The notes under the pieces are model-generated. The model worked only from the letters and a program-made list of their open reading frames with translations. It was not told the origin of the DNA and ran no database searches. A program made the translations under genes and the position numbers. Of a DNA stretch of 64,000 bases, positions 6,701 through 57,328 are shown in pieces (position 1 is the stretch's first letter; every line of letters starts with the position of its first letter). This DNA is from an uncultured Ectothiorhodospiraceae bacterium (GTDB lineage: Bacteria > Pseudomonadota > Gammaproteobacteria > SZUA-152), in contig CAYNYJ010000003.1 of the NCBI GenBank assembly GCA_964401355.1, positions 2,091-66,090 on the forward strand, in the 5' to 3' direction.

Positions 6701-6860
6701 ATTATTTTCGCTGGCCACCGGACTGGCCGGTGAATCCTTGATCTGGGGGCCCGTGGCCTCGGCCATCGTCTGGGGACTGGCTTTCTCCACGGTGTTGACA
6801 CTTTTTGTTATACCGCTGCTGTACCTCACGTTTATGCGAAAGTCTCATTCACAATATTAA
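3783..6860 (+). CDS. RND family efflux permease (AcrB/AcrD/AcrF superfamily)
   Basis: 1025 aa with two 6-TM halves and large periplasmic loops. AEDVEKRVTNPLEEAI, GMLVDDAVVVVE proton-relay motif, RRVVPIIITSLTTIAG. Confidence 0.95.
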   Translation: MWLKSFLGNHVLANATFAVVLLVGTLSYLQMPRAQDPEVNFNWISIITALPGASAEDVEKRVTNPLEEAIRKVQDIKFVSSTSREGIADILVRFDDISPRLFDKRINDLRREIQNKANAELPAEVIDPVILEITTSNNFPTATLILTGAANDELLRKTALNVRKDLERINGVSSVLEAGLSDPEINVAFDPSTLRDKGISPTQLANTVRRYFRDVVAGDMRIGQQSWLVRVIGSDADPGYLASLPIIGSEQHVNIGEVAEVSWSHDTFSKLSRHNGRPGITLAVTKQASANILDLVERINHYLEQKEALLTASGLELTLLDDQTESTREAIKIMQSNALLGLALVVLITWIFLGAHIAFFIGIGIPFSLAGTFWLLSVSGQTLNQNILLGVVIVLGMLVDDAVVVVEAIYYRIQRGAQSMQAAIDALKEVFTPVTASVTTTMAAFLPLMLMPGIVGQFMFVVPFVVSVALAISLLEAYWMLPVHISMSKLDMSSPGKLQRWRTRFTHWLRLKYSKLLIRVLRKPKRSIAVVLALFLVAITIIGSGMVRINFFAFDPMRAFYINVEMPPGSTLQDTLNTVEAIANKASLHLRDDESRAVSATAGQMFTDVAPFFGDNYGQVFISLKPKSGDMRGVNDIIESMRADVMATPAPRLITFFKLSKGPPVTKAISIKVRGDNFAELRAATDALRNILSAIPAVSDISDNDSPGKHQLKLQLDNDAIHRNGLNPADVANTVRLLFDGEVVASMQHESERVEIRVQAKRTRLHSIDQLLEIPLSLPQGGEIPLGQLLHAETGLSRSNIRHHNFRRAISVEAELDKLQMNTLEANKRIMADWQKIHLQHPTVDLDYSGELEDIQESLDAMLGLFLFGVGLIYLIIGTQFRSYWQPLMILATVPLAFTGVTFGLLATGNPLSLFTLYGVVALVGIAVNAAIVMIDAANRRLAAGMSVLHATIYAARRRVVPIIITSLTTIAGLFSLATGLAGESLIWGPVASAIVWGLAFSTVLTLFVIPLLYLTFMRKSHSQY

Positions 6861-10518: not shown

Positions 10519-12792
10519 TCAGCGGCCCGCGCGCACCAGCCCCCCCAAACCCGCATCTTCCAACGCTGCGTTAAGGAAATTACGAATCAAGTGTGCATAC
10601 TCAAAGGTCAGCGCCTCTTTCAATAACATCTGCGCCTTACGTTGGCTAAAGGTACGAATCACCCATTTCACACGCGGCAAATTTGCGGCACTCATGCTGA
10701 GGTTGTCGATGCCCATACCCAATAAAAGAATCGCGGCGGCCGGATCACCTGCCATTTCTCCACACACGCCAACGGTCGTTTTTTCTTCCTTGGCACCGTC
10801 CACAATTTGTTGCAAAGCACGCAACACAGCAGGGTGTAATGAATCATATAAATTGGCAACGCGGGCATTGTTACGATCGACCGCTAATAAATATTGTGTC
10901 AGATCATTGGTACCCACGGAAATAAAGTTAACGCGACGCGCCAACTCACGAACCTGATACACCGCAGAAGGCACTTCTATCATCACCCCAACATGCGGCA
11001 TGCTGATACTAACACCACTGTCAATCAGTTCGTGATATGCGCGCCGCAACAATCGCAAGGCATCGTCCACTTCGGCAACGTTGTTGATCATCGGGAACAA
11101 TATATTCATATTATTCAGGCCGACACTGGCGCGTAGCATGGCGCGCAATTGCAGCATAAAAATTTCCGGGTGGTCAAGACTGATGCGTATGCCGCGCCAG
11201 CCCAGAAACGGATTATCTTCCTCAATAGGAAAATACGGAAGGGTTTTATCGCCGCCGATATCCAGTGTGCGCAGCGTCACGGGCGCGGGCGCAAATGACT
11301 TCAGCACCTGCCGGTAAATTTGCGTCTGTTCATCTTCACCCGGAAAACAGTCACGCATCATAAACGGAAATTCAGTGCGGTACAGGCCCACGCCCTCTGC
11401 ACCACTTTTGCGTGATGGCGTTACGTCAGCCAACAGACCACTGTTAATGTAAAGAGGAATGCCGACATTATCCGGCGTTATTGCCGGCAGATCACGCAGT
11501 TCCCGTAATTCCTTAAACAGCTCGGCCTCTTCCCGCAATAAATGTTTGAACTCTTCACGAATAGTGCGAGAGGGATTGACGAACACACGTCCGGTGTATC
11601 CGTCGACAATAATACTGCGCCCATCCATTCGGCTCACCGGCAAATCATCCACGCCCATCACCGCAGACACGCCCATGGCGCGCGCCAGTATCGCCACATG
11701 CGAAGTTTGTGAGCCACGTTTGGAAACCACCCCAACCAATCGTTTGATCGGGACTTCAGCCAACATGGATGCGGTAATTTCATCACCGACCAGCACTGTC
11801 CGGATCGGAAATTTTTTCGGTTTTTGCGGTTCTTTGGAACGCAATTTTTCCAGAATTCGTCGCCCAAGATCACGCACATCGTCGGCACGCTCACGCAAAT
11901 ATGCATCTTCCATCGCATCGAAGGCATGTATGTGTTCGAGTATGGTTTCGCGCAGCGCACCAGAAGCCCAATTGCCCTTTTTGATACGGCGAATCACTTC
12001 ACCGGTAATCGCATCGCCTTCGAGCATTAACAGATAAGCATCAAACAGTGCGCGATCTTCCACCGGCAGCACTTCTTTCATGCGCTCTAACATAGATTGG
12101 ATGTCTTTGCGCACGTCAGCAACCGCTGTTTTGAACAAGCTTATTTCCTGCTTAACATCACCTGCGGAGCGATCCGGAATCGCCTCCAGATTCGCCAGGG
12201 CATAATTCACTACTGCGGTGCCTATCGCCACACCGGGCGCTCCGGGCTGCCCGTTTAAAGGGGCGACGTCCCGCGCTCCGCGTCTATTATTATTCAATCC
12301 GTTGATGCCGCCACTGACTTCTGCATGCGCAATGGCACCGGCCAACTGCGCGGCAATAGTCACCAGAAAAGTAACTTTATCTTCACTAAAATGCACCTTG
12401 GAAAGACGCTGCACCACTAACACCCCTTGCAGCTGTCGATGGTGAATAATCGGCACCCCCAGAAAAGCGTGATAACGCTCCTCACCGGACTCGGGAAAAT
12501 ATTGATAGCGCGGATGGGTGGGTGCTTCGGCCAGGTTCACCGGCTCTTTCCGCTCACCAACCAGACCAATGAGCCCTTGGTCGACCTTCAGGCGCACCAT
12601 GCCCACCGCCTCGTTATTCAGGCCATCCGTTGCCATCAACACATTTTCACAATGCACTTTATCGGTCAGGTAGATGGAACACACGTCTACTTCCATCGCC
12701 TTTTTTACACGCAGCACAATGACGTCCAACGCCTGATCAAGATCCTTGGCGGCGGTGACTTCCTGCACGATGCGCCGCAGCGTATTCAGCAT
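10519..12792 (-). CDS. ptsP: GAF-containing PEP-protein phosphotransferase (EI-Ntr)
   Basis: N-terminal GAF domain (MLNTLRRIVQEV), GSQTSHVAILAR phospho-His, GVGLYRTEF, TLRTLDIGGDK, NPFLGWRGIR, SVGTNDLTQY, CGEMAGDP. Lies downstream of rppH. Confidence 0.97.
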   Translation of the reverse strand: MLNTLRRIVQEVTAAKDLDQALDVIVLRVKKAMEVDVCSIYLTDKVHCENVLMATDGLNNEAVGMVRLKVDQGLIGLVGERKEPVNLAEAPTHPRYQYFPESGEERYHAFLGVPIIHHRQLQGVLVVQRLSKVHFSEDKVTFLVTIAAQLAGAIAHAEVSGGINGLNNNRRGARDVAPLNGQPGAPGVAIGTAVVNYALANLEAIPDRSAGDVKQEISLFKTAVADVRKDIQSMLERMKEVLPVEDRALFDAYLLMLEGDAITGEVIRRIKKGNWASGALRETILEHIHAFDAMEDAYLRERADDVRDLGRRILEKLRSKEPQKPKKFPIRTVLVGDEITASMLAEVPIKRLVGVVSKRGSQTSHVAILARAMGVSAVMGVDDLPVSRMDGRSIIVDGYTGRVFVNPSRTIREEFKHLLREEAELFKELRELRDLPAITPDNVGIPLYINSGLLADVTPSRKSGAEGVGLYRTEFPFMMRDCFPGEDEQTQIYRQVLKSFAPAPVTLRTLDIGGDKTLPYFPIEEDNPFLGWRGIRISLDHPEIFMLQLRAMLRASVGLNNMNILFPMINNVAEVDDALRLLRRAYHELIDSGVSISMPHVGVMIEVPSAVYQVRELARRVNFISVGTNDLTQYLLAVDRNNARVANLYDSLHPAVLRALQQIVDGAKEEKTTVGVCGEMAGDPAAAILLLGMGIDNLSMSAANLPRVKWVIRTFSQRKAQMLLKEALTFEYAHLIRNFLNAALEDAGLGGLVRAGR

Positions 12793-43526: not shown

Positions 43527-46068
43527 CCCCTAATCAATACGCTCGGGAAGAGCGCGACGCTATCTCGACTGCGCCGCGCATTGTGGGCGCAAGTTTCAAT
43601 CCACGCGCTCGGGAAGAGCGCGACCACCAAAAACCGGAACGGAAGCACAAAAGCAGAGTTTCAATCCACGCGCTCGGGAAGAGCGCGACCCTGTGTAACC
43701 ATCCGATGACAACCCGCGCAGGTGTTTCAATCCACGCGCTCGGGAAGAGCGCGACCCCGCTCGACGCATCAACGGCGAGCCCCTATCCACAGTTTCAATC
43801 CACGCGCTCGGGAAGAGCGCGACGCCCTGGCAGATATGAAACGGTTGGCTGAACAGGAGTTTCAATCCACGCGCTCGGGAAGAGCGCGACCCATTAAAAC
43901 GATAAACAGCCCCAATTCCTGATCTGTTTCAATCCACGCGCTCGGGAAGAGCGCGACCCGCTCGGCAGTGAGTGGTGCCGCAGTTGGAGTGGTTTCAATC
44001 CACGCGCTCGGGAAGAGCGCGACTTGCTCCCAGCGTGCAAACCATGGGGCCATGGTGTTTCAATCCACGCGCTCGGGAAGAGCGCGACACAAACATACCG
44101 TAATATTCATCAATGCGCACTTGTTTCAATCCACGCGCTCGGGAAGAGCGCGACTGGGGGCAACGATGTGGTGGGTGCGGTGGGGCCTGTTTCAATCCAC
44201 GCGCTCGGGAAGAGCGCGACCGATCTGGGTGGTGCTGATATGGCTGGTGCCTACGTTTCAATCCACGCGCTCGGGAAGAGCGCGACCACCAAAAACCGGA
44301 ACGGAAGCACAAAAGCAGAGTTTCAATCCACGCGCTCGGGAAGAGCGCGACGATGGACAGATTAATGCTCCAGCTGAAGATCCAAGTTTCAATCCACGCG
44401 CTCGGGAAGAGCGCGACATCCTCAACATACAAATGACACGAACATCTTCCAGTTTCAATCCACGCGCTCGGGAAGAGCGCGACCTTGCGCCTAGGACGCT
44501 GTTTAGCTCGCAGCTCCTGTTTCAATCCACGCGCTCGGGAAGAGCGCGACTACGGCAGTCGATATCTGAGATCGCGTTAACGCAGTTTCAATCCACGCGC
44601 TCGGGAAGAGCGCGACACAATTTAAGCGCTTAAATGATGAAAATTCTATCGTTTCAATCCACGCGCTCGGGAAGAGCGCGACAATGAAATTTAATGTTAT
44701 GGAAGTGGACACAGGGGTTTCAATCCACGCGCTCGGGAAGAGCGCGACCATCCACCAAGTTATTTATGCTGCATGTTTGGTTGTTTCAATCCACGCGCTC
44801 GGGAAGAGCGCGACAGACCGCGAAAGTAGGAGTCCCGCGAAGGCCAGGTTTCAATCCACGCGCTCGGGAAGAGCGCGACAGTCTGGTGAGCCGTCTTATC
44901 GCTCGTACGGCAGGTTTCAATCCACGCGCTCGGGAAGAGCGCGACAACACCACTACCGTCCTCTACATACAAATGGCATGTTTCAATCCACGCGCTCGGG
45001 AAGAGCGCGACAAGCGCTCTTTCGGTTAGAAAACAGCACTTGGCATGTTTCAATCCACGCGCTCGGGAAGAGCGCGACGACCGTGAGATCAGCAGCCCGG
45101 CAAAGGCCAAGAGTTTCAATCCACGCGCTCGGGAAGAGCGCGACATCAGAGAGACCCACAAACGTGAGGATTAATAATGTTTCAATCCACGCGCTCGGGA
45201 AGAGCGCGACGGCCCGACGAGCGGTGCAAAAACACACATAAAAAGTTTCAATCCACGCGCTCGGGAAGAGCGCGACTTCGCTTATAGTGCTAAAAACCTC
45301 TAAATCCTCTGTTTCAATCCACGCGCTCGGGAAGAGCGCGACGATAACTTTTGGTTCGTCTTGGGTCATGAGTTAGTTTCAATCCACGCGCTCGGGAAGA
45401 GCGCGACACATTAGCCATAATTCAACCTTAAAAGTTATAACGTTTCAATCCACGCGCTCGGGAAGAGCGCGACCGCTTCACGAATTGCATCAATGTCGTA
45501 AACCTCTGTTTCAATCCACGCGCTCGGGAAGAGCGCGACGTGCCTCCTGGGTGGGGTTTTGCTTGGATATCAGGTTTCAATCCACGCGCTCGGGAAGAGC
45601 GCGACCCGCTGGGCAGGGTGTAGCGGGGGTTGGTAATGATGTTTCAATCCACGCGCTCGGGAAGAGCGCGACGTGAGCCATGGCCATGTTGCGGATAATG
45701 TCATGCTGTTTCAATCCACGCGCTCGGGAAGAGCGCGACGATTTTCCGTTGTGTGCGTACCATGAGGAGCGGGGTTTCAATCCACGCGCTCGGGAAGAGC
45801 GCGACGCCCACATGAACACCACATGAACCCCACCCCTATGTTTCAATCCACGCGCTCGGGAAGAGCGCGACGAGCCATGGCCATGTTGCGGATAATGTCA
45901 TGCTGTTTCAATCCACGCGCTCGGGAAGAGCGCGACAATTTAATGAGCTGCGCCTGCAAACCCAGCGCCTGTTTCAATCCACGCGCTCGGGAAGAGCGCG
46001 ACAATAAATCGCCAGACTCAAATACGGCAACCAGACGTTTCAATCCACGCGCTCGGGAAGAGCGCGAC
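43527..46068 (-). CRISPR. Type I-C CRISPR array: 38 intact 32-bp repeats, 1 degenerate trailer repeat, 38 spacers of about 33-36 nt
   Basis: Repeat on minus strand GTCGCGCTCTTCCCGAGCGCGTGGATTGAAAC (stem CGCGCTC/GAGCGCG). First intact copy at 43593, last ends at 46068. The degenerate copy at 43527-43558 marks the trailer end. Confidence 0.99.
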
Positions 46069-46244: not shown

Positions 46245-46538
46245 TCATAAGATTAATGTATCACGCACAGGATCCGATACTGCTTTTGCTCCAAGATGTT
46301 CTACTCTTTGCCTTCCTTTCTTTCCGAGCATGTAAAACCGAAGGCTGTCTTCTTCTGGTTCATAAATTTCAATTAACTCATTTTTCAACATGGTGAATTG
46401 TGCAGGATCAACTTCACATTCAAAAACTGAATTTTGTACGCGCATTCCGTAATCCTGGCAGGTCTTAGCAATTCTACGTAATCGTCTTTTCCCTCCTTCG
46501 GATATAACGCTGACATCATAGGTTATAAGTACCAGCAT
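46245..46538 (-). CDS. cas2: CRISPR-associated endoribonuclease Cas2
   Basis: MLVLITYDV, RLRRIAKTCQDYGMRVQNSVFEC, DSLRFY. Confidence 0.97.
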   Translation of the reverse strand: MLVLITYDVSVISEGGKRRLRRIAKTCQDYGMRVQNSVFECEVDPAQFTMLKNELIEIYEPEEDSLRFYMLGKKGRQRVEHLGAKAVSDPVRDTLIL

Positions 46539-46540
46539 AA

Positions 46541-47557
46541 TTATTTCACCAGATAGGGTGTATAAAATTCTGTATCACCACGTATGTGCCGAGCCAGTAA
46601 CATTGCCTGACAATGAGGTAGCAGGCCTATAGGTACCTGTTCTTCTAAATATGGATGCATTATTTCCACTTGCTTTCGCTCTTGCCAAGCCGTTAGCATT
46701 TTCTTTCTCGCATCATCTGATAAACGCACTGCACCGCTGGCTTCAGTAACAAAATCTTTGAGCTGAACTTGTTGGCGATTGATCAGCGTTAAAACAAACC
46801 GATCTGCCCATGGCGCTCGAAACTCTTCTAATAAATCCAGTGCAAGGCTCAGTCTACCGGGTCGATCCTGATGCAAAAAACCAACATAGGGATCTAAACC
46901 TACCCCCTGCAATGCCGAGGCACATTCATGGGTTATTAATGTATATGCAAATGATAATAACGCATTAACCGGATCGGTCGGGGGGCGGCGAACACGGCCG
47001 CCAAAAGCAAAACCACTCCCACGCAAAAGCGCGTTAAACACCCCAAAATAAGTGCTCGCTGCGTCACCTTCGATACCCATAGCTTCTGCTACGGTAACAG
47101 CATTACGAGCACGCCTTAAACTGGTTGCAAGTCGTTTGGCAGCGGTTTCAATTATCTGGTTTTCACCATGATTGCGAATTTCTCGCATCAGTACCGAACG
47201 GCAATTTGCTATTTTAGCAGCCACCATCAACCGGGCAATAAAAATAAATTTTTGCTCATCATCCGCCCACCGATACTGGGTACGTCGTAGCAAAACATTG
47301 CCTGTTTGCTTGCCCTGTATTCGCGCAAGATATTTTCCATATTCTGTATAAAATGACAGCCCTATTCCTTTTTCAGCGCAGTAACCCATCAAAAATGGTG
47401 ATACGGAAATCTGGCCGAAACATAAAATATTGCTTATTGTTAACGCAGGAAACTGTCCAAGCTTATCCTTGCCCTGTTTAATGACAATGGTCTCTCGCTC
47501 TTTATGCAGGTAACTTTCCTGACGAGTAATATAGAGTGTATTCAGAAGTTTTTTCAT
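46541..47557 (-). CDS. cas1: Type I-C Cas1
   Basis: MKKLLNTLYIT, GNVLLRRTQY, MGIEGDAASTYF, RRPPTDPVNALLSF, GFLHQDRPGR, DLLEEFR. Confidence 0.98.
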   Translation of the reverse strand: MKKLLNTLYITRQESYLHKERETIVIKQGKDKLGQFPALTISNILCFGQISVSPFLMGYCAEKGIGLSFYTEYGKYLARIQGKQTGNVLLRRTQYRWADDEQKFIFIARLMVAAKIANCRSVLMREIRNHGENQIIETAAKRLATSLRRARNAVTVAEAMGIEGDAASTYFGVFNALLRGSGFAFGGRVRRPPTDPVNALLSFAYTLITHECASALQGVGLDPYVGFLHQDRPGRLSLALDLLEEFRAPWADRFVLTLINRQQVQLKDFVTEASGAVRLSDDARKKMLTAWQERKQVEIMHPYLEEQVPIGLLPHCQAMLLARHIRGDTEFYTPYLVK

Positions 47558-48183
47558 TCCTGCCCTTCAAATAGCTCATCGATATATTGGCCAGAATGAT
47601 CATTTCTGAAAGTGTCCGGCTCACATAAATCAGTAAGTGAACAGGCTCGGCAACGTTTGACTACTGAGGTAGGTGATGGCGTCTTGCCCGATAGCAGTAA
47701 ATCATGCGCGCCATTTATAACTGCGATAGTAGAAGCACGTAATGCTGCATCAATCTTCACAGGTTCACGACGTCTTACCTCCCAATACCAGATTGCGCCT
47801 TCTGTTACCTGTGTATCGCGCATCTCTTCTATGCATAGCGCCTGTGCGCAAACCTGTATGCGATCCCAGTCCTGCACCTTTGGTTTTCCCCGCTTGTATT
47901 CCACGGGAAAATAACGCGCCTGATCACCAGTTTCTATTTCCAGCAAGTCCATTTTTCCGGTTAGTCCATAGCGTTGCGATTTCAACAAAACACCTCGTTC
48001 ATATCGCACATGCTTGCGCTGCTCAGCAACTCCGGAGTCAACACGTTTGTGCAGAATATTACCTTCTGCTGTAAAGCGATTATCCTCCCACACCTGTTCG
48101 ATATGAATCAGCGCAAACTGGCGTGGACAATAAGCATAGTGTTGCAGGGCAGAGAGCATAATAATTTGTGTATCATCGCTCAT
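47554..48183 (-). CDS. cas4: Cas4 exonuclease
   Basis: LSALQHYAYCPRQ, GKMDLLE, PVEYKRGK, QVCAQALC and C-terminal CRACSLTDLC Fe-S cysteines. Confidence 0.97.
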   Translation of the reverse strand: MSDDTQIIMLSALQHYAYCPRQFALIHIEQVWEDNRFTAEGNILHKRVDSGVAEQRKHVRYERGVLLKSQRYGLTGKMDLLEIETGDQARYFPVEYKRGKPKVQDWDRIQVCAQALCIEEMRDTQVTEGAIWYWEVRRREPVKIDAALRASTIAVINGAHDLLLSGKTPSPTSVVKRCRACSLTDLCEPDTFRNDHSGQYIDELFEGQE

Positions 48184-49187
48184 TTATTCTTATCTTTATT
48201 CTGTAACGCTACCAGCTTGTCAAAGTCTGATTCAAATAGCTTGTCTTGCACAATACGGTATTTCTCAAACTCAGTTTCGGCATAACCCCTGGCAATTTTG
48301 CTGGTAATTTTGCCGCTGCCTTGCAATATGTCGCGTTCATCAAATTCCAGAAATAAATCGAGGCGTTTTATCCAATCCTCCATAGTCATAGGAATTTTGC
48401 GTTTAGCGCGATCTTCGGCCAGATCAAGATAGGCGTTAACGATACGTCCCAGTGATTCAAGTTCTTCCTTTTGCAGATAATTCTTAGCGATGGCAACATC
48501 GGTTTTTACAATTTTTCCCTCGGGAACTTTGTCCCAACTGGTTAGGCCCATGTGCTGTTTTTCACTGTCAGCACGTTGCATGATGAGTTCAGCCGCCGTC
48601 TGTCCATGAATGGCAAAATGAAGTTTATTTTGCACTCTGGCAAAGAAATCCTGGGTGGTTTTATCACTTTTGTTGTAGTCCATGCTGGTGGCATATATAT
48701 CGGTGATTTTTTGGTAGAAGCGGCGTTCGCTCAAACGTATTTCACGAATTTCTGACAGCAATCTTTCAAAGTAGTCTTCATTCAGAAAAGCGCCATTCTC
48801 AAGACGTTTGTTATCCAGCACAAAACCTTTAATGGCAAATTCTCTTAATACCCGGGTCGCCCACTGGCGAAACTGGGTCGCGCGTTTGGAATTGACGCGA
48901 TAACCCACTGATATAATCATGTCCAGATTATAAAAGTTGGTGGGTTTGGTAGAAAATTCGGAATTTCCGAATTTTCTCAGTGTTGCGGCCTCATTCAGCT
49001 CATCGTCGCTGTAGATATTTTTTATATGCTCATTAATTGTCGAAACAGATTTTTCAAACAGCTCAGCAATTAGTTTTTGAGTCAACCAGACCGTCTCATT
49101 CTCAACCCTGACTTCAATGCTGTCCTCCCCTGCCTGGGCCGTAAAAATTAAAAATTCAGCGGTTGAGTTGCGGATTAATTTTTTCAT
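48180..49187 (-). CDS. rhuM: RhuM-family (virulence RhuM) protein inside the cas operon
   Basis: ETVWLTQKLIAELF, STINEHIKNIY, YNLDMIISVGYRVNSKRATQFRQWAT, DYFERLLSEIREIRLSERRFYQKITDIYATS, VQNKLHFAIHGQTAAELI, IAKNYL. TGA overlaps the cas4 ATG. Confidence 0.9.
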   Translation of the reverse strand: MKKLIRNSTAEFLIFTAQAGEDSIEVRVENETVWLTQKLIAELFEKSVSTINEHIKNIYSDDELNEAATLRKFGNSEFSTKPTNFYNLDMIISVGYRVNSKRATQFRQWATRVLREFAIKGFVLDNKRLENGAFLNEDYFERLLSEIREIRLSERRFYQKITDIYATSMDYNKSDKTTQDFFARVQNKLHFAIHGQTAAELIMQRADSEKQHMGLTSWDKVPEGKIVKTDVAIAKNYLQKEELESLGRIVNAYLDLAEDRAKRKIPMTMEDWIKRLDLFLEFDERDILQGSGKITSKIARGYAETEFEKYRIVQDKLFESDFDKLVALQNKDKNK

Positions 49188-49200
49188 TGTGTGTTGTCAC

Positions 49201-50355
49201 TCATCCTGTTGAGTGGAAGTAACCATTGATTGCCAAATCCTTCAAAGGCATCGCTTTTACTTGTTCGGACAGGGAAAATGACTTATCCCCCGGATATACA
49301 ATAACAACTTCTTCCAGATCTAAATCAGACAACGCCGAGCGAATGGAAGGTGTTATCCGGGGAGCATCTGTGCGCTTACATTCAATGCCCACCATGCGGC
49401 CATCTTTACGCAGCAGTAGATCAATCTCAGCCCCCTGATGCGTGGCCCAGAACCAGGCGTCATCAGGCTGCGCCGCAGACAAAACTTCTTCAAGCGCATA
49501 GCCTTCCCAGGATGCGCCAATCTTAGGATGGGTCAACAAATCACGTTGGCTGGTGATACCCAATAATTGATGCAACAAGCCTGAATCGTGAATGTAGATT
49601 TTGGGTGATTTAACCTGTCGTTTACGAATATTGGCATGCCAGGGTTGAAGCTGCCGCACCATAAAAGCATCACTCAACAAATCCAGATAACGACGAGTTG
49701 TGGATTCACTCACACCCATCGCCCGTGCAAACTCAGCGGCATTCCAGATTTGACCATGATAATGCGCCAACATGCTCCAAAATCGCCATAGGGCAGTCGC
49801 CGCAGTGCGTACACCCCACTGAGGAAAATCCCGTTCCAACAGGGTTTGAATAAACTCTTTACGCCAGGCCAGGCTATCCGCCTCATTCGTGGCGAGATAA
49901 GACAACGGAAACCCACCGCGCAACCAATGCTGCTCTTGCTGACTCTCCCCCAACTCCTGCAAACTAAAACCCCGTAAATACAACATTTCCATGCGCCCGG
50001 CCAGAGATTCAAATGACTGCTTCAATAAACCCCCTGAAGCACTCCCCAATATCAGAAACTGCCCGGCAAAGGATCGACGATCCACCAATACCCGCAACAC
50101 CGGAAACAGCTCCGGTCGGCGCTGAATCTCGTCAATCACAATCAAACCCTGTAATGATTCCAGAGCGGTCATGGGCTCATCCAGCCGAACAAGGCTAACT
50201 GGGTCTTCAAGATCAAAATAATTGACAGAATCTTCCGGCACAAAATCTCGCGCCAGCGTGGTTTTGCCGCATTGGCGCGGCCCCACCAGGGTAATGATCC
50301 GGCTGCGTTGCAATGCAGCTTGAATCCGCTTGTGCCAGTGAGTGCGCTTGATCAT
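49201..50355 (-). CDS. AAA+ ATPase (AAA_14) with C-terminal DUF4143 nuclease-like domain
   Basis: VGPRQCGKTT, IDEIQ, ILGS, ESLAGR, WLRGGFP, KSPKIYIHDSGL and C-terminal EIDLLL...GIECK (PD-(D/E)xK-like). Confidence 0.9.
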   Translation of the reverse strand: MIKRTHWHKRIQAALQRSRIITLVGPRQCGKTTLARDFVPEDSVNYFDLEDPVSLVRLDEPMTALESLQGLIVIDEIQRRPELFPVLRVLVDRRSFAGQFLILGSASGGLLKQSFESLAGRMEMLYLRGFSLQELGESQQEQHWLRGGFPLSYLATNEADSLAWRKEFIQTLLERDFPQWGVRTAATALWRFWSMLAHYHGQIWNAAEFARAMGVSESTTRRYLDLLSDAFMVRQLQPWHANIRKRQVKSPKIYIHDSGLLHQLLGITSQRDLLTHPKIGASWEGYALEEVLSAAQPDDAWFWATHQGAEIDLLLRKDGRMVGIECKRTDAPRITPSIRSALSDLDLEEVVIVYPGDKSFSLSEQVKAMPLKDLAINGYFHSTG

Positions 50356-50394
50356 GCGATGACTTTACCATGATAATCCGTCACCATGCTTATG

Positions 50395-50645
50395 TTATTT
50401 CATGGCAAAAACGGCTTGAATGTTGAACGGAATCATAACCAACACTGGCGCATGGATATTTGTGATTTTCTCATAAAAACGCTTCTCTGAGCTGCGGATA
50501 TCCTGAATGCGCCGCAGCCGTTCACCAAAATAGCGGAACAGTACACCTGGGGCTTTCAGGTGTTTGTCATCCAAACGAACCTCAAGGCGGGTTTGGCCGT
50601 CTTTAGTTTGGTGAATGAGGGATTGGGGGGTGGTGGGTTGGGCAT
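50395..50645 (-). pseudogene. Second, internally deleted and frameshifted rhuM-family remnant
   Basis: ATG at 50645. After a one-base shift in a C-run it reads QSLIHQTKDGQTRLEVRLDD...YFGERLRRIQDIRSSEKRFYEKITNIHA, matching the RhuM N-terminus fused to the IRxSExRFYxKITDI motif. Confidence 0.8.
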
Positions 50646-50649
50646 AGGA

Positions 50650-51489
50650 TTAAAAACCGTCTATTTCTTCCGCTTTTAAGTTATCCAGTGCTTCAAACTG
50701 ATAACTACCATCAGTATTGACTGTAAGACTATGGTGGACTTTTGCGGATGAATATTGTCCCGATTTATTGTTATGCTTCCACCAGATAACTTTTTCAATT
50801 GCCATGCTGCCTTCAGGTCGTGCGGATGAAGAATCACCCTCAAATAATTTTGGTAAGACTTGTTTAATTTTATCAGCATCCTCATCACTAAAATCTGTCC
50901 GCTCTGCTAGCTGTGGTGACATTGCTCCATAAGTCACATAAATAGCTTTATCAACGCGGTGTTTCATGCCCATGGTATCTGAACTTTTCTTGGTGCCATC
51001 ACCTTCGCCGCTGACACTTTTAGTAATTTGTGTGCTCGTTATGTTGACTGGCTCTACGCTAAAAGCAGATTGAATTGAAACTGGGCCACGAATAGGAATA
51101 GACACACCATCTTTATTTTCACTTTTAAAGGCAAATAATTGACCAAAAGTACGAACATCCATCCATTTTTTGTTAGCAAGACGCGCCGTTTCATCTGGAG
51201 AGGTTTTCTTAACATTGAAAGCGTCTTTACCTAAACCATGCTCATCCGATTCAGCACGAACTTTAAGGCTTGGCATACCATCCGTTTTCTTTTCATCTGT
51301 CTGCACAAATATTGTTTCGCCAGACTCTTGTAGCCGATCACGGATTTTTCGTTTAAGGCAAACATCCGTTACTTCGCCAAAACCATCATAATCAGTACGA
51401 GGTCGGTTTCCATTGAGCGGATCACCATTAGGGTTGGCATTTTTTACACTAAAGATTAGTGCAAAATCAATTTTATTTGTTAATGACAT
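50650..51489 (-). CDS. cas7: Type I-C Cas7 (Csd2)
   Basis: NANPNGDPLNGNRPR, TDVCLKRKIR, DVRTFGQLF, IRGPVSIQ, ITSTQITKS, DTMGMKH, SARPEG. Confidence 0.97.
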   Translation of the reverse strand: MSLTNKIDFALIFSVKNANPNGDPLNGNRPRTDYDGFGEVTDVCLKRKIRDRLQESGETIFVQTDEKKTDGMPSLKVRAESDEHGLGKDAFNVKKTSPDETARLANKKWMDVRTFGQLFAFKSENKDGVSIPIRGPVSIQSAFSVEPVNITSTQITKSVSGEGDGTKKSSDTMGMKHRVDKAIYVTYGAMSPQLAERTDFSDEDADKIKQVLPKLFEGDSSSARPEGSMAIEKVIWWKHNNKSGQYSSAKVHHSLTVNTDGSYQFEALDNLKAEEIDGF

Positions 51490-53531
51490 TAGCTGTCTCC
51501 TTTTAAGGTTTTAGAATCGTTATCATCTGTGCTGTGTTCTTTAAGTATCCACTGTCCATTTTTTAGTTTGTGCTCTCTTAACCATTTTCGTTGGCAATGG
51601 AAACCTAATAGATATTCTCCCTTAAGTTTGGTTGACGAATTAAACTCATCCACCTCAAAAGCATCGGAAATATCATCAAGCAATCGTTTGTAACCTTCTT
51701 CAAGAGGTGCGATTTTACTTCTCAATCTTTGCTGATAAGGAACGATTCCTTTTACAATTACTAACCAGGTGGCTGCGGGGTAATCGACAAATCTTTGCAT
51801 CAAACGACTGGCATTCGTTGACCTAGGTTTTTCATCAGCAACTATCATTGCCATTTCTTCAATTTTTTCTGCAACAGCTAATAAACGACCATAAAGATAG
51901 TCTCGGTTTTTTCTGTCTACTTCTAATGTCATGATGTAATTTCTCCTTTCATTTTCAATTGGTTTTCTTCGGTCATAGCCCTTGAAAAGAGCGCATGCAA
52001 TACAGAGATGTTTTTCCCATAACCATTGCTCATCGTTTTTATAGGCATTACGATTCGTCGCTCTTTGTACAGCTTTCAAAACTAAATCAATGGGAAATGG
52101 GCGCACTTCAACAATGCAAGGCAATATACGTTCTATAGTGTTTTTCTTTAGTGAGTCGTTGACGTTTGTGCCATATACAGCTTCCCAAATTGAACGTGGT
52201 GATGGTGCGCTGATTGGCCATACCGTTTTTTTAGCAGGCTTTGATTTTCCAACATCCACTTCAATTGAATGTCGTTGGTACCATGCAAAATCATTATGCC
52301 ATTGTGAAATACGTTCAATATATTCTTTCGGGAAAAGTTCCTGATGGTAAGTCACTGCCATACGTCCGGGTGTTGCTGAGTCCAGCCCCATAATTACAAT
52401 ATTATCTGTCTCCTTTAATTTAGCCTGATAACCCGCCATATATTTACCTAACGCTTTAGCAAATGACTGACCAAGGTCAATTGTGTGATCAATCTGGTTT
52501 TTCGCTTCAGGTAATGGGGTGGATATTTCCTGAATTTCATCATCAAGATGATCCCAGATATCTTCCATAGGTTGAGGTATTTCTCTTCCTGATACTGCCC
52601 AGGCCACCACTGCTTGATCGCCATTGCGAAAACCTTGCCGTGAAATCAACCACCGTAGCGCATTGTGCGCTTTTTGGGTTACGTCAAAAGAAATCCCAAC
52701 TGACTGTGCGCCTTGTTTTCCCATGCTGTTTTTGGAATCCGTAAACCGGCCTCTAAATGTATAACCAGACATATCATTTGATGACACAAGTTTGGCTTTA
52801 TCTCCAGTATGACGAAGCTTAGCTGGGTGGTTAACGGCCAATGGCGTTTCTTTGCCTGTTATATAGCAAAGCCCCGTTTGATCACTATTAGCTAATTCAT
52901 AATCTACCCATGCTTTTTGTAAATCAGGATCTTTCCATGTATCGCTAACCGGATCTCCTTGTCTCTCTTCGACGCTCCAGCAAACCAACGCATTTCCCTG
53001 GTCGAGCATTCCCTTTTCTTTCGGCAAAACCTTGAATATCTTGGGGGCATCACTCTCGCTGTCTTTTGGCCACGATAGCAATAAGTTACCCTGCTCATCG
53101 ACAAATAGGATTTTATGTTCAACCAAATCCTGAACCACCGCGCCTTTCTCAACATATTTCTTGACTGCTTGCGCTTTAGGGTGGGTATGGGCTGAGCTAC
53201 ACCATCCATCAAGTTGTTTGAGAAAACCGTCAAAATACCCTGGTTTTTTGCCACCATATTTCGGATAATCCTTGGCGACATATTGGATTTTATCTGCCAA
53301 TGGGTGTGGTGCTTCACCGCTACTCCTGCCCGCTGACTTTTCTGTTGCAGGCAAGACTATCTGTGTTTTTTCCAGCACTTCTGCTCGCTTAAAATTTCCA
53401 TCGCTATCAATAGTGATTTTTATATGTGCATTTTGCAGGGTATGACTAATTGGCATGGGTTTCTCTGACTCAGACAGATCAAGTCGCATACCAGATTCAT
53501 AGGTTTCATATAGTTTGGCCATCCAACTCAT
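51489..53531 (-). CDS. cas8c: Type I-C Cas8c (Csd1)
   Basis: MSWMAKLYETY, HPLADKIQY, CYITG, KLVSSND, SQKAHNALRWLI-like motif, LDSATPGRMA, DYLYGRLLAVAE, YLLGFHCQR. Confidence 0.95.
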   Translation of the reverse strand: MSWMAKLYETYESGMRLDLSESEKPMPISHTLQNAHIKITIDSDGNFKRAEVLEKTQIVLPATEKSAGRSSGEAPHPLADKIQYVAKDYPKYGGKKPGYFDGFLKQLDGWCSSAHTHPKAQAVKKYVEKGAVVQDLVEHKILFVDEQGNLLLSWPKDSESDAPKIFKVLPKEKGMLDQGNALVCWSVEERQGDPVSDTWKDPDLQKAWVDYELANSDQTGLCYITGKETPLAVNHPAKLRHTGDKAKLVSSNDMSGYTFRGRFTDSKNSMGKQGAQSVGISFDVTQKAHNALRWLISRQGFRNGDQAVVAWAVSGREIPQPMEDIWDHLDDEIQEISTPLPEAKNQIDHTIDLGQSFAKALGKYMAGYQAKLKETDNIVIMGLDSATPGRMAVTYHQELFPKEYIERISQWHNDFAWYQRHSIEVDVGKSKPAKKTVWPISAPSPRSIWEAVYGTNVNDSLKKNTIERILPCIVEVRPFPIDLVLKAVQRATNRNAYKNDEQWLWEKHLCIACALFKGYDRRKPIENERRNYIMTLEVDRKNRDYLYGRLLAVAEKIEEMAMIVADEKPRSTNASRLMQRFVDYPAATWLVIVKGIVPYQQRLRSKIAPLEEGYKRLLDDISDAFEVDEFNSSTKLKGEYLLGFHCQRKWLREHKLKNGQWILKEHSTDDNDSKTLKGDS

Positions 53532-54262
53532 AAGGCTGCCTCCTCAGTTTCCACTGAAAGCAGGTTGTTACCTTCTTCAAACTGCTTGGCTAGCATGGGG
53601 CGGATAAAACGGCTCACGGTACATGCTTCTGGCCGGGGGAATTCCAGAATACCTTTTTTCATGACGGCATTCCAAAATCGGCTGTGTAATTTGTCCTTGC
53701 CTGTTTCATCCGGGTAATCAAAGCCATGGAACATCAGGCCAAAATCCAGTTCATCAATATCATCGTAAGCACCTTTCCCTTCACCAAATTCACAAGGTTC
53801 AACATAAGCCTGACAATCCCGCGTACCGAGAAATATATCTTGTCTTCCGCCTTTTTCTATTGAGCGTTTTGCTATGGCAAAATGTTTGCCATCAATGCGA
53901 TCTTTGGCTAGTTCAGGCCGGTGCTCATTCCATTCAAAATGCGCCTCTACCTGATATTCCACATCATGCAGGAATGTATAAATTGCAAGGCTATTGCCAC
54001 CACTCCAAACCAGTGGTTTTGTGCCTTTAGTTTGTGTGCGCAGTGATTTCATTACTCTGACTTTATCGACATGCCAGATAAACGTGGGTTTCCAGTAAAT
54101 GGACTTCAATACGCCTTTTATGGCTTCATAAGTAGGCAAGTGATAAGTACTTTTCTCGCCACCAATCTTGGTTACGGGGTCAGTAAACAGGGCATAACGG
54201 GCATACACTTTAAAACTGACACTGTTTTTTGGTGTTTTATGCATTCGAGTTCCTCCTAACAA
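53528..54262 (-). CDS. cas5: Type I-C Cas5 (Cas5d, pre-crRNA processing)
   Basis: YALFTDP...GEKSTYHLPTYEAIKG, IYWKPT, LHDVEY, FLGTRDC, LMFHGFDYP. Confidence 0.96.
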   Translation of the reverse strand: MLGGTRMHKTPKNSVSFKVYARYALFTDPVTKIGGEKSTYHLPTYEAIKGVLKSIYWKPTFIWHVDKVRVMKSLRTQTKGTKPLVWSGGNSLAIYTFLHDVEYQVEAHFEWNEHRPELAKDRIDGKHFAIAKRSIEKGGRQDIFLGTRDCQAYVEPCEFGEGKGAYDDIDELDFGLMFHGFDYPDETGKDKLHSRFWNAVMKKGILEFPRPEACTVSRFIRPMLAKQFEEGNNLLSVETEEAAL

Positions 54263-56682
54263 TGATTGAAATCCATTGAGCTACACCGCTTATCCGACAA
54301 GCCAAACTCATCGCTATAATATTGTTTGTCCAGCCAATAAATACCTTCACCGGGCTGTATTTCATAAACGGCTTTTTCTTTTTGCAGCCGTTTCCATACA
54401 TTGGGAAATACATTAACACTGAATCTTTGTGCTTGCTTGAGTAGCTGTCTATATGTTTTCACATCAAATTCTTTTGCAACACGACCTAGCTCAGCTATCA
54501 GGTGTTTAGCCTCGTCATTATAAGGAACTATCACTGCCTGAGTGGGTGAGTCGATAGCTTTAAAGGCTTTTCCAGCAGCCATGAAGGACTGTTGCAGTAA
54601 TCCTGATTTTTCACTGCGACCTATATTTTTTGTATTATTGCTTAATAGGTTTAATAAATTATCATTCCTTCCGATTTGCCTAGCAGTGACAGGGTAAGCC
54701 ATTTCATCAGCACGGTCATAAAAATAATAATTAAAGTATTGCTTTATGGCATTTGGTGCTAATAAATCATCAAATTTCTCATCGAAAATACGCTGAGCCT
54801 TATCTATACCAATCTTTATATCTTTTAATAGATCAATTTTTTCTTCGCAAGGATTGATAACATGAACGGTTGCCATTTCTTGAAGTCCATTACGGTTGCA
54901 GCGTCCTGCTGCCTGAGCAATAGAATCTAACCCCGCAAGAAAACGTATAACAGAAGCGAAATCTACATCGACACCCGCCTCAATAAGTTGGGTGCTGACA
55001 CATAGCACGGGTAGGCTTTGTTCTAATCGCTGACGAATTTTTTTAAATATCGCTTTGCGATGTGCCGGGCAAAGGTTAGTGCTTAATTGAAAGATTGATT
55101 CATTGTCTACTTTAGGACTTAAAGCCTGATAAAGTTGTTGCGCCCATGACTTTGTATTGACAATAATAAGGCAGCTACCTAGTTTTTCAAATTCACTGAA
55201 AGCCAGTTCCGAAATTTGTTCTGCCGTCCACCCTTCTGGTTTTAGGTTAGGTACAACTTTTGCGCGCTGTAAATCTTCGAATAGTTTTGTCACATTACCC
55301 GCCAGTTCATTTTCTTTAGGTATTGTTAACTGTCCTTTCTCTGGTGTTTTAAGATTATCAAGCAAAGGCTGTGTAGCCGTGCAAAGCACAGCGGTTGTAT
55401 TGCAGTAGTTGGTGAGAAAATTAAGTGCATTGCAAAATAGGTGCGTGCAGTTAATGGGCAGGGTCTGGATTTCATCAAATATCAGCACGCTATTGGCCAG
55501 TTGGTGCATTTTCCTTGCGCCTCTTGTCCCTCCTGAAAATAGCACTTCGAGAAATTGCACCATGGTGGTCATTACAATCGGCGCATCCCAGTTCTCTGAA
55601 ACGATTTTGCTATGCCATGTTTGTGTCTCAGGCTCTAAATTGGAATGTTGTTCCAGCACCCACGGGCATTCATCTTTTGAACACTCAATGAGTTCGCGTA
55701 TCGCTTGTGCATTTTGTTCAATAATGGACGTGAAAGGAATAATGTAGATAATACGGTCTGATTTATGCTCTTCTGCATGATGAAGGGCGTAACGCAAACT
55801 TGCATAAGTTTTGCCTCCACCCGTTGGTACAGTAAGGCTGTAAATACCTTGTTTGCCTTTTGCGCGTTGTTTGCAGTTGTCTGAAATATTTCGTCGCAAC
55901 TTATCTATGGGCTTTTCGCCACTGAATTCTTTAATAGCGGATTCAAGACGGTTGACTGGAATTGACCAATTTACAGGAGAGTTGTTTCTGTGCTGTGTAT
56001 TTTCAGGACATTCAAAATCAGCACTGTTAATTCGATCTGCATCAACCAGGCAACTGAATAACATACGCGTCCAGAAACCTAAATTAAACGATTGGATAGT
56101 TACTGGAAGTTTCTCATTTTCAATTTTAATGATTTTCTTTAGTTGAGTTAATATATTTTTCAACAACTCTTTATCTGCCAAATCACTTATCTTTTCCAGA
56201 TAGTGTTGTGGTGCATTTTTCAGGCATTCATTTTTATGTGTTTTATCGTCTGGTTTGTTCATTCTGTCTGAAAAGCCATTATCACCATCTGGTTTAAGGC
56301 AATCAATTAGGCCGCTGTGATGAGACGCAACACATAAGGCGAGTATCTGACCAACAAGTTGACCTTGTGCGCCCCACTTTCCATAACTTTGCCACACCCA
56401 TTGAGCACCAGCACTGGAATGATCTATTTTTCCTTTTAGACTTTTAAAGTCCACATACTCATCTTCATCAGGATTGATCTTTCCAGTCGCAGATCCAATA
56501 TAGTCCTGAAAGACTTGGCTATATTTACCTAAGTCATGCAGTAAGCCGAGTAGTTGTCCAGCACCAGAAACCTCCAGCTTGGCTGCTAAACGTCCAGCTA
56601 TTTCACCTACTTCATCAAGGTGGGTTCCCAACGTCTGGTCTTTTGCATCTTTTTTTCTATGATGCGCTATGAACTTTTTCAT
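54256..56682 (-). CDS. cas3: Cas3 HD nuclease-helicase
   Basis: HD domain (HLDEV, LLHDLGK, SHHSGL, LVDADR), TVPTGGGKT, DEIQ, STQLIEAGVDVD, QAAGRCNR. Confidence 0.97.
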   Translation of the reverse strand: MKKFIAHHRKKDAKDQTLGTHLDEVGEIAGRLAAKLEVSGAGQLLGLLHDLGKYSQVFQDYIGSATGKINPDEDEYVDFKSLKGKIDHSSAGAQWVWQSYGKWGAQGQLVGQILALCVASHHSGLIDCLKPDGDNGFSDRMNKPDDKTHKNECLKNAPQHYLEKISDLADKELLKNILTQLKKIIKIENEKLPVTIQSFNLGFWTRMLFSCLVDADRINSADFECPENTQHRNNSPVNWSIPVNRLESAIKEFSGEKPIDKLRRNISDNCKQRAKGKQGIYSLTVPTGGGKTYASLRYALHHAEEHKSDRIIYIIPFTSIIEQNAQAIRELIECSKDECPWVLEQHSNLEPETQTWHSKIVSENWDAPIVMTTMVQFLEVLFSGGTRGARKMHQLANSVLIFDEIQTLPINCTHLFCNALNFLTNYCNTTAVLCTATQPLLDNLKTPEKGQLTIPKENELAGNVTKLFEDLQRAKVVPNLKPEGWTAEQISELAFSEFEKLGSCLIIVNTKSWAQQLYQALSPKVDNESIFQLSTNLCPAHRKAIFKKIRQRLEQSLPVLCVSTQLIEAGVDVDFASVIRFLAGLDSIAQAAGRCNRNGLQEMATVHVINPCEEKIDLLKDIKIGIDKAQRIFDEKFDDLLAPNAIKQYFNYYFYDRADEMAYPVTARQIGRNDNLLNLLSNNTKNIGRSEKSGLLQQSFMAAGKAFKAIDSPTQAVIVPYNDEAKHLIAELGRVAKEFDVKTYRQLLKQAQRFSVNVFPNVWKRLQKEKAVYEIQPGEGIYWLDKQYYSDEFGLSDKRCSSMDFNHC

Positions 56683-56770: not shown

Positions 56771-57328
56771 TCATTTCAACAACCGATTGACGGCATCCAC
56801 ATCAAACGCCTCCGCATCGAAATCATCGCCCATCCATTCAACGATCTCTTCGTGCTCTTCATTTTTGAGGTCATAAAATGCTTCGAGCATATTGGCGTAA
56901 CCGGGCGGGCCACCGCAATCTTCGGGCGGACAGGCGCGTTGGCCGTCGAGGCAGACGGGATAATGGGCGCCCGGTTCGGCGGGCAGTATCTTTTCAATTT
57001 CGAGATCGTGTTCCCAGCTATCGCCAAAATCGTAATCGTAGATGAAGCTGCTGCCTGTATTGGCGATTTTGTCGAGACGTACGTTATGTTCGTTTTTTAC
57101 GTCGCCGGGGAAGTCGGGATCGGGTTCACCGTAGTGATCACGGCCAACGCGAAAGCCGTGCAGGTGGGCATTATCCCAGCCCATCACATCCTGCAGGATG
57201 CTGTGCAGTTCTCCCAGTTTGGTATCTGCCCTTACCAGGAAGTGCCTACAGACGAGCGGCTCTATGTAACGCAGGGTGATCTTGATTTGATAGATGCTGT
57301 TGCTGTGACCGGCTGTTTTTTTGCTCAT
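56771..57328 (-). CDS. Plasmid pRiA4b ORF-3 family protein
   Basis: YQIKITL, LHSILQDVMGWDNAHLHGF, YDYDFGDSWEH, CLDGQRACPPEDCGG. Confidence 0.88.
   Translation of the reverse strand: MSKKTAGHSNSIYQIKITLRYIEPLVCRHFLVRADTKLGELHSILQDVMGWDNAHLHGFRVGRDHYGEPDPDFPGDVKNEHNVRLDKIANTGSSFIYDYDFGDSWEHDLEIEKILPAEPGAHYPVCLDGQRACPPEDCGGPPGYANMLEAFYDLKNEEHEEIVEWMGDDFDAEAFDVDAVNRLLK

Follow-up and report, generated by a model that had tools for sequence, protein, structure and literature searches.

The window, by which we mean the whole 64,000-nt stretch of DNA analysed here, contains a type I-C CRISPR-cas operon in which cas3, cas5, cas8c, cas7, cas4, cas1 and cas2 stand in this order next to a CRISPR array, with Pfam matches for all seven genes (Table 1). 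Between cas7 and cas4 lie 2.47 kb of non-cas DNA that hold the interval studied here, an ATPase gene and an intact rhuM gene, whose stop and the cas4 start overlap by 4 nt. The relic, the ATPase gene and the intact rhuM are all nested on the same strand within a multi-gene defence system, an arrangement that recurs in relatives. Pfam analysis of the window revealed no antitoxin-like partner of rhuM, and the arrangement is not that of a type II toxin-antitoxin system. Just upstream of cas3, a 185-aa ORF (56771-57328, minus strand) has a PRiA4_ORF3 Pfam match in the public annotation of an identical contig (L081, 2162-2719).

In this analysis, the rhuM type of the remnant is designated A, that of the window's intact gene B, and a third type C. 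L-numbers denote comparison loci; because all of these are metagenome contigs or MAGs, some of the frameshifts in them could be assembly errors.

Table 1 Features of the type I-C operon and of the rhuM-A relic, in window coordinates.
Feature	Position	Strand	Basis or remark
cas3	54256-56682	-	Pfam
cas5	53528-54262	-	Pfam
cas8c	51489-53531	-	Pfam
cas7 (type I-C Csd2)	50650-51489	-	Pfam Cas_Cas7, E 9e-74; translation
rhuM-A relic, 5' piece	50567-50645	-	codons 1-26 of 341; ATG at 50645; L406 alignment
Deletion junction TTGGATGA	50567-50574	-	303-bp in-frame loss; imperfect direct repeat
rhuM-A relic, middle piece	50415-50574	-	codons ~126-187; 80.1% DNA identity to L406; Pfam RhuM
TTG ORF, 59 aa	50395-50574	-	by-product reading from the relic into the ATPase leader
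3' truncation breakpoint, then ATPase leader	50356-50414	-	L082 alignment
AAA_14 + DUF4143 ATPase (PADLOC candidate PDC-S01)	49201-50355	-	Pfam; PADLOC
rhuM-B, intact, 335 aa (PADLOC candidate PDC-S05)	48180-49187	-	Pfam, E 1e-107; PADLOC, E 2e-151
cas4	47554-48183	-	Pfam Cas_Cas4
cas1	46541-47557	-	Pfam
cas2	46245-46538	-	Pfam
CRISPR array, 38 identical 32-nt repeats and 37 spacers	43593-46068	-	repeat analysis

A decayed rhuM gene directly after cas7

The TAA stop codon of cas7 (50652-50650, minus strand) is followed, 4 nt on, by an ATG that opens MPNPPPPNPSFTKLK..., a frame that runs to a stop codon; the preliminary description of this DNA had reported just such a start, reading MPNPPP. The neighbouring frame of the interval encodes QSLIHQTKDGQTRLEVRLDD joined directly to KHLKAPGVLFRYFGERLRRIQDIRSSEKRFYEKITNIHA. 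Against the relic peptide, the Pfam profile Virulence_RhuM (PF13310) scored 41.5 bits (E 1.3e-10, profile positions 62-103), above the curated family cut-off of 33.7, while the window's intact copy scored 359 bits. Furthermore, tblastn with the intact A-type RhuM of L406 aligned 49 aa at 63% identity (E 2.5e-13, 50574-50428) and 26 aa at 77% identity (E 4.7e-6, 50640-50563), and the RhuM homology proposed earlier was thus confirmed by both kinds of search. A full-length RhuM consists of ~330-345 aa and combines an N-terminal winged-helix-like domain with the RhuM core in one open frame, an architecture that the relic has lost: some 86 of its 341 codons survive, spread over three frames. The interval is a pseudogene of a RhuM family member, not a working member.

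The remnant had been read as a diverged, different allele and not as a recent duplicate of the intact gene, and our comparisons agree. Its peptide shares 46% identity over 46 aa with the window's own RhuM, and no significant DNA match to rhuM-B was detected; therefore, recent duplication of that gene was rejected. Searching with an intact A-type relative and ranking the hits separated the two types: the best A-type proteins were 78-81% identical to the 5' piece and 65-67% to the middle piece, against 41% and 48%, respectively, for the best B-type proteins. By protein identity, the remnant falls into a clade other than that of the intact copy, grouping with the A-type and not the B-type proteins, which accords with the allelic difference proposed in the preliminary description. 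In the case of the three proteins that match it best, the gene always follows cas7 directly in a type I-C locus, and its nearest proteins in a larger collection all come from I-C loci. An idea that A-type RhuM is foreign to CRISPR loci had arisen from a scan of species-representative genomes with the A-type protein of L082, in which the best 80 loci were without nearby I-C cas genes; in view of the larger collection, it was discarded as a sampling effect. No further RhuM fragments, such as a displaced 3' half, were found in the window.

Lesions of the relic and constraint on the intact genes

To delineate the lesions, we aligned the relic with the intact 341-codon rhuM-A of L406, the best comparator, whose Cas8c and Cas7 are 88% and 79% identical to those of the window and whose rhuM-A follows cas7 after the same 4-nt spacer. 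Window positions 50676-50547, running from the last part of cas7 into rhuM-A, match L406 1427-1557 at 87.8% DNA identity, and positions 50559-50420 match L406 1848-1988; these two BLAST segments share 13 nt in the window, and in L406 they are separated by 303 nt. The first lesion is a 1-nt deletion at 50633/50634 (codons 4-5) that shifts the frame. A one-base slip had been placed within the run of C residues here; the frameshift holds, but it lies just upstream of that C6 run (50630-50625). The second lesion removed codons 27-127 (101 codons, 303 bp, in frame), so that the internal gap noted earlier is real but smaller than the ~130 codons then estimated. An imperfect direct repeat, whose copies in the intact gene of L406 are GGTTCGGCTGGAAGATGA and GGTTTTCTTCTGGATGATGA, coincides with this loss, and a 303-bp deletion at such a repeat is the signature of slippage or microhomology-mediated deletion. 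The third lesion is a 1-nt deletion after 50449, followed by small indels near 50420-50430, with homology continuing in a third frame to 50415. Lastly, the 3' half (codons ~188-341) is gone up to the leader of the inserted ATPase gene; homology to this leader (L082 4951-5000) starts at 50405, window 50405-48793 matching L082 4951-6566 at 78% identity by blastn.

The remnant had also been described as absent from the open reading frames of this DNA, which holds only in part: the mechanical ORF list includes the 59-aa TTG ORF, and the public gene call for it bears a PF13310 match. Conservation of this ORF was not found in relatives, where relics differ in length and contain stops.

Between the relic and the rhuM-A of L406, we obtained an omega of 0.18 (21 non-synonymous and 23 synonymous differences in 74 codons), compared with 0.018 (3 and 26 differences in 66 codons) between the intact rhuM-A genes of L406 and L082 in the matching region. 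The value for the relic, although drawn from 74 codons only, is about tenfold that of the intact A genes, and this small sample points to an appreciable period in which the relic evolved free of constraint on its protein. Its excess of non-synonymous substitutions amounts to roughly 0.1 per site, a considerable age for junk DNA in a bacterium. For rhuM-B, whole-gene comparisons with L402, L403 and L322 gave an omega of 0.05-0.07 (~33-38 non-synonymous and ~90-103 synonymous differences, dS 0.64-0.81), indicative of strong purifying selection on the intact gene.

No solved structure related to RhuM by sequence was found. An AlphaFold2 model of RhuM-B had a mean pLDDT of 57.6 and was confident only for the N-terminal residues 11-115, and Foldseek returned weak winged-helix-type matches for it (DdrC, E 1e-3; Ski-DHD; Mbp1; MarR). 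Residues 11-115 are modelled as a winged-helix-like DNA-binding domain, and the C-terminal part is predicted to be helical.

Contents of the cas7/cas4 slot in relatives

Subsequently, we compared the contents of the gap between the interference genes and cas4 across loci (Table 2). Three RhuM types occupy it, and in several loci the stubs of earlier occupants sit upstream of the current ones. An intact rhuM directly after cas7, which the preliminary description had expected in close relatives, is present in L406, L407, L408, L409 and L411, each time of type A. The full order in L406 is cas7, 4 nt, rhuM-A, a B-type fragment, HigBA, cas4, a Bro-N gene, cas1 and cas2. The rule that A and B are never both intact, considered at one point, is refuted by L411.

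Table 2 Cas7 identity to that of the window, and contents between the interference genes and cas4.
Locus	Cas7 identity	Slot contents
L409	85%	A alone, intact
L407	37%	A alone, intact
L323, L327	27%, 34%	B alone, without any stub
L411	81%	A stub of 41 codons (4-nt spacing as in the window), B intact, A intact
L082	25%	A intact, B stub of 25 codons, ATPase, B truncated at 136 aa
L406	79%	A intact, B fragment, HigBA
L392, L322, L402	84%, 36%, fragment only	A stub, then B
L029	76%	A stub, then intact type C (54% to B, 50% to A)
L002, L243	85%, 80%	both rhuM copies broken
L242	87%	empty slot, 3-nt gap

Decay of the two copies has also run the other way: L082 and L406 keep A with B broken. The ATPase gene inserted between the window's two rhuM genes is 86% identical to the copy of L082 and occupies the equivalent position there. 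Because the window and L082 share this insertion (78% DNA identity) but kept opposite rhuM genes, the tandem state predates the decay of A in the window.

It had been proposed that one rhuM decayed here while another was acquired or kept at the same operon position, and the slot contents of relatives support this; 'kept' suits the window better than 'acquired after loss', because A and B coexisted in tandem (L411, L082, L406). Repeated renewal of RhuM at one site, likewise suggested then, finds support in the three types in the slot, in the upstream stubs and in a tract of high identity limited to rhuM-B (see below). The further suggestion of selection for RhuM at this locus survives in part: the low omega of rhuM-B fits it, by inference, but L002 and L243 have lost both copies, L242 is empty, and the slot is not specific to RhuM. 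The earlier interpretation is, on this evidence, supported in its essentials.

Both cas7 and cas4 were identified in 140 I-C loci, and in 45 of these the two genes are more than 250 bp apart. About a third of the I-C loci bear other cargo in the slot, mostly toxin-antitoxin modules. The ORFs encode VapBC, ParDE, MazF, HigBA-like pairs, HipA with an HTH protein, Fic, Bro-N, DUF5615 and MqsA-like proteins, and a protein in which the N-terminal region of RhuM is fused to a Fic domain. RhuM-related sequence is present in ~5% of these I-C loci and in 7 of the 10 closest relatives of the window's Cas7. The cas7/cas4 slot is a general cargo hot spot and not a RhuM-specific site. Cargo of the toxin-antitoxin type is carried by L003, L009, L011, L018, L019, L020, L024, L054, L062, L066, L067 and L070, with Gp49/HI1420 as the HigBA-like pair. 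In the slot of L034 (8828-9859), a 343-aa protein unites a RhuM N-terminus (positions 1-70 of the Pfam profile) with a Fic/DOC domain and appears to be a natural domain swap on a common DNA-binding head.

Several loci bear traces of how cargo may enter. At L082 4825-4900 and L411 4808-4933, a stub comprising the first ~25-40 rhuM codons lies ahead of the inserted gene, and the stub is of the type of the next rhuM downstream (B stub, ATPase, B in L082; A stub, B, A in L411), which hints that entry may duplicate, or recombine within, the conserved 5' end of rhuM. In L027 (8894-10661) and in L286/L287 (~6707-6820 and 11167-11760), cargo is flanked by partial cas4 duplications, and the insertions there seem to lie within the 5' end of cas4. 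A search for flanking repeats that would mark a cassette gave only short matches at chance level.

The gap between cas4 and cas1 is a second cargo slot inside the operon. Many relatives carry a Bro-N gene there (L002 10763-11638; L029 10410-11471; L322 7627-8496; L406 4151-4771; L407 7064-7654; L409 7729-8136); the window, in which cas4 overlaps cas1, lacks it. Likewise, the cas4-cas1 gap measures 0.5-1.6 kb in the Neisseria and Pasteurellaceae I-C loci L015, L021, L028, L030 and L036.

Movement of rhuM alleles and modules

In comparisons of the window with L402, L403 and L322, DNA identity is 82-97% throughout rhuM-B and for ~80 nt into cas4, then drops to about 60-68% for the remainder of that gene, whereas L323 and L324 show a uniform identity of 70-80% over rhuM-B, cas4 and cas1. 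These two patterns suggest that in some lineages rhuM-B descended together with the adaptation module, and that in others it was exchanged as a tract the size of the gene. All rhuM-B relatives at 77-92% identity are located directly upstream of cas4, and the rhuM-cas4-cas1-cas2 block is joined to three interference modules: the canonical I-C module, a variant with a Cas7 of 34-37% identity, and one with cas7-cas3 order. The last occurs at L082 173-3456 and L323 2735-5445, where Cas7 is 25-27% identical to that of the window and the nearest model for Cas3 is that of type I-G, with scores well below that model's cut-off; the two loci appear to represent module shuffling exactly at the cargo slot.

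The closest rhuM-B relatives, at 89-92% identity, reside in decayed or rearranged loci (L403 1181-3427; L404/L405 ~540-1850; L402 4795-7723). In L403, rhuM, cas4 and BroN stand without cas1 or cas2; L404 and L405 have a cas4 fragment only; and in L402 the cas4-BroN pair is duplicated. From these remains, rhuM seems to outlast the CRISPR system surrounding it. Away from CRISPR loci, it is common for two or three divergent rhuM paralogues to lie within a few kb of one another (6 of 80 A-type loci), as seen at L233, L228, L230, L227, L203, L217, L326, L394 and L338, and tandem rhuM genes would thus be a general habit of the family.

Relatives of the ATPase at 63-74% identity (loci L083-L161) are spread over a great variety of phyla, among them Chloroflexota, Verrucomicrobiota, Planctomycetota, Nitrospirota and Bipolaricaulota, and this spread implies frequent horizontal transfer. 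A fixed pairing of ATPase and RhuM was considered and rejected, since rhuM lies nearby in only 1 of 80 ATPase loci.

Proposed history and alternatives

We consider the following account, taken as a whole, very probable. An A-type rhuM would once have begun 4 nt after cas7, as an intact gene of a type I-C operon. In this ancestor, two divergent rhuM paralogues would have lain in tandem, flanked by the interference module (cas3-5-8c-7) on one side and the adaptation module (cas4-1-2) on the other, with a DUF4143 ATPase gene inserted between the paralogues, a layout preserved in L082. In the window's lineage, the upstream A copy may have become dispensable and been broken by two 1-nt deletions, the 303-bp deletion, the small indels and a 3'-half deletion reaching the ATPase leader, while the downstream B copy would have remained intact, with its stop overlapping the cas4 start. 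More generally, rhuM alleles of types A, B and C, toxin-antitoxin modules and other genes may enter the slot by recombination, the losers decaying into 5' stubs. The order of these events, and recombination as the route of entry, are inferred.

Could the gene really be intact, with homopolymer errors or a collapsed repeat mimicking its lesions? One lesion does lie beside the C6 run, and a contig of run X1 breaks at 50508-50526, but two thirds of the gene are absent in any frame. Moreover, the interval, whose sequence occurs only in DNA metagenomes, is the same at every base in contigs assembled from two independent runs (identical over 50429-50662, the part spanned by run X3), and a JGI contig is identical to the window. 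The identical sequence in independent assemblies, together with the homology, therefore indicates a real feature, neither a chance match nor an assembly artefact, and we regard the latter as extremely improbable. A strict serial replacement, in which A was the sole original occupant and died first and B and the ATPase were acquired later in its place, would accord with the mobility of B alleles evident from the gene-sized tract that is more identical to L402, L403 and L322 than the flanking cas4, and with the several close I-C relatives that have A alone (L409, L407). Against it, L411 holds both copies intact in tandem, and L082 shares the arrangement of ATPase and B (78% DNA identity) with A still intact; we judge serial replacement rather unlikely.

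The relic is probably inert. A function could be imagined for it as a small protein modulating RhuM-B, encoded by the 59-aa ORF or the 29-aa MPNPPPP... ORF, or as an internal promoter or RNA element for the ATPase-rhuM-cas4-cas1-cas2 genes. Its RNA folding bias (z-score -2.05) and a weak promoter-like site at 50398-50370 point that way, as does its age for junk DNA, which would be compatible with a role in spacing or in regulating downstream genes. The folding bias is mild and not compelling, however; promoter and terminator sites in the relic occur at the counts expected from shuffled sequence, and Rfam yielded no match to it. A 5' stubs also persist upstream of B or C in at least seven loci, but these stubs are 17 to ~85 codons long, contain stops and have no common frame, and L323 and L327 have B without a stub. 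Taken with the tenfold elevation of omega, these features make a retained function very unlikely, and an inert remnant remains the preferred reading, for which the persistence of 5' stubs in many loci is the one loose end.

Discussion

A toxin role was predicted for RhuM, which lies within R-M operons and frequently occurs as a fusion with DOC domains (Anantharaman 2013, PMC3710099), and RhuM/PDC-S05 has been found embedded in type I R-M, BREX and DISARM operons (PMC3710099; Payne 2024, bioRxiv 10.1101/2024.01.29.577857). The candidates PDC-S05 and PDC-S01 were defined by their nesting in BREX, DISARM or type I R-M operons, and the survey of the defining study covered Hma, BREX, DISARM and type I R-M only. 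In E. coli, a PDC-S05 gene from a cold-seep metagenome lowered the plating of T7 and T5 ~1000-fold and that of T4 ~10-fold, and a PDC-S01 gene tested beside it was not among the protective genes (bioRxiv 10.1101/2024.09.26.614923). By analogy with these findings, the RhuM of our locus may be a single-gene anti-phage effector carried by the CRISPR operon. The locus shares with the known systems the PF13310 family, the same-strand nesting in a multi-gene defence operon and the frequent company of Fic/DOC, AAA ATPase or toxin-antitoxin genes. It differs in that the host operon is a type I-C CRISPR-cas operon, the site is the boundary of interference and adaptation modules, the rhuM stop overlaps the cas4 start, and the interval studied is a dead copy. 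Since the embedding of RhuM in defence operons was already known, the novelty is modest and consists of the cas7/cas4 slot and its allele turnover. The picture of defence genes within defence systems is thereby extended from R-M, BREX and DISARM to type I CRISPR-Cas. Although itself probably junk, the relic marks a defined slot at the interference/adaptation boundary of type I-C and related operons, in which candidate single-gene defences (RhuM/PDC-S05, the DUF4143 ATPase/PDC-S01) and toxin-antitoxin modules appear to be exchanged quickly, leaving stubs behind.

RhuM may be a working accessory of the Cas4-Cas1-Cas2 adaptation module and not a passenger. The accessory role is suggested by the overlap of its stop with cas4, by its travelling with cas4-cas1-cas2 through swaps of the interference module and by the renewal of its alleles at the slot; we nevertheless hold it to be unlikely, and we know of no protein interaction between RhuM and Cas proteins. 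If it were true, RhuM could serve as an abortive back-up when interference fails, or could make the operon hard to lose. The natural series of genotypes (A only, B only, both, none) could be used to learn the role of RhuM and any interaction with Cas4 or Cas1.

Two further known arrangements invite comparison. The PrrC anticodon nuclease is embedded in the EcoprrI type Ic R-M operon and is held in check by the host R-M proteins. It is cited in PMC3710099. Like RhuM here, it is a stand-alone abortive-type effector inside another immune operon, and it is the model for defence by a 'second line' that is tied to the system hosting it; it differs in its protein family, which is unrelated to RhuM, and in its control by the host R-M proteins. 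CreTA RNA toxin-antitoxin pairs, made up of two small RNAs repressed by Cascade, safeguard type I CRISPR-Cas systems. These pairs have been reviewed elsewhere (PMC12737573). They resemble the present case as toxic cargo inside a cas operon that could make loss of the operon hard; unlike them, the cargo here is protein-coding, and neither an antitoxin partner nor control by Cascade is evident.

RhuM-domain ORFs have been reported between cas1 and cas9 in type II-C loci of Bacteroides fragilis (Tajkarimi 2017, PMC5704556). Both there and here, rhuM lies within a CRISPR-cas operon beside adaptation genes; the B. fragilis loci belong to another CRISPR class and another phylum, and that report (PMC5704556) does not describe allele turnover, stubs or pseudogenes. 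In our collection, a Bacteroidaceae MAG (L400, 6001-8749) carries a rhuM 64% identical to B immediately upstream of distant cas1 and cas2 genes (26-29%), an arrangement consistent with the published B. fragilis type II-C observation.
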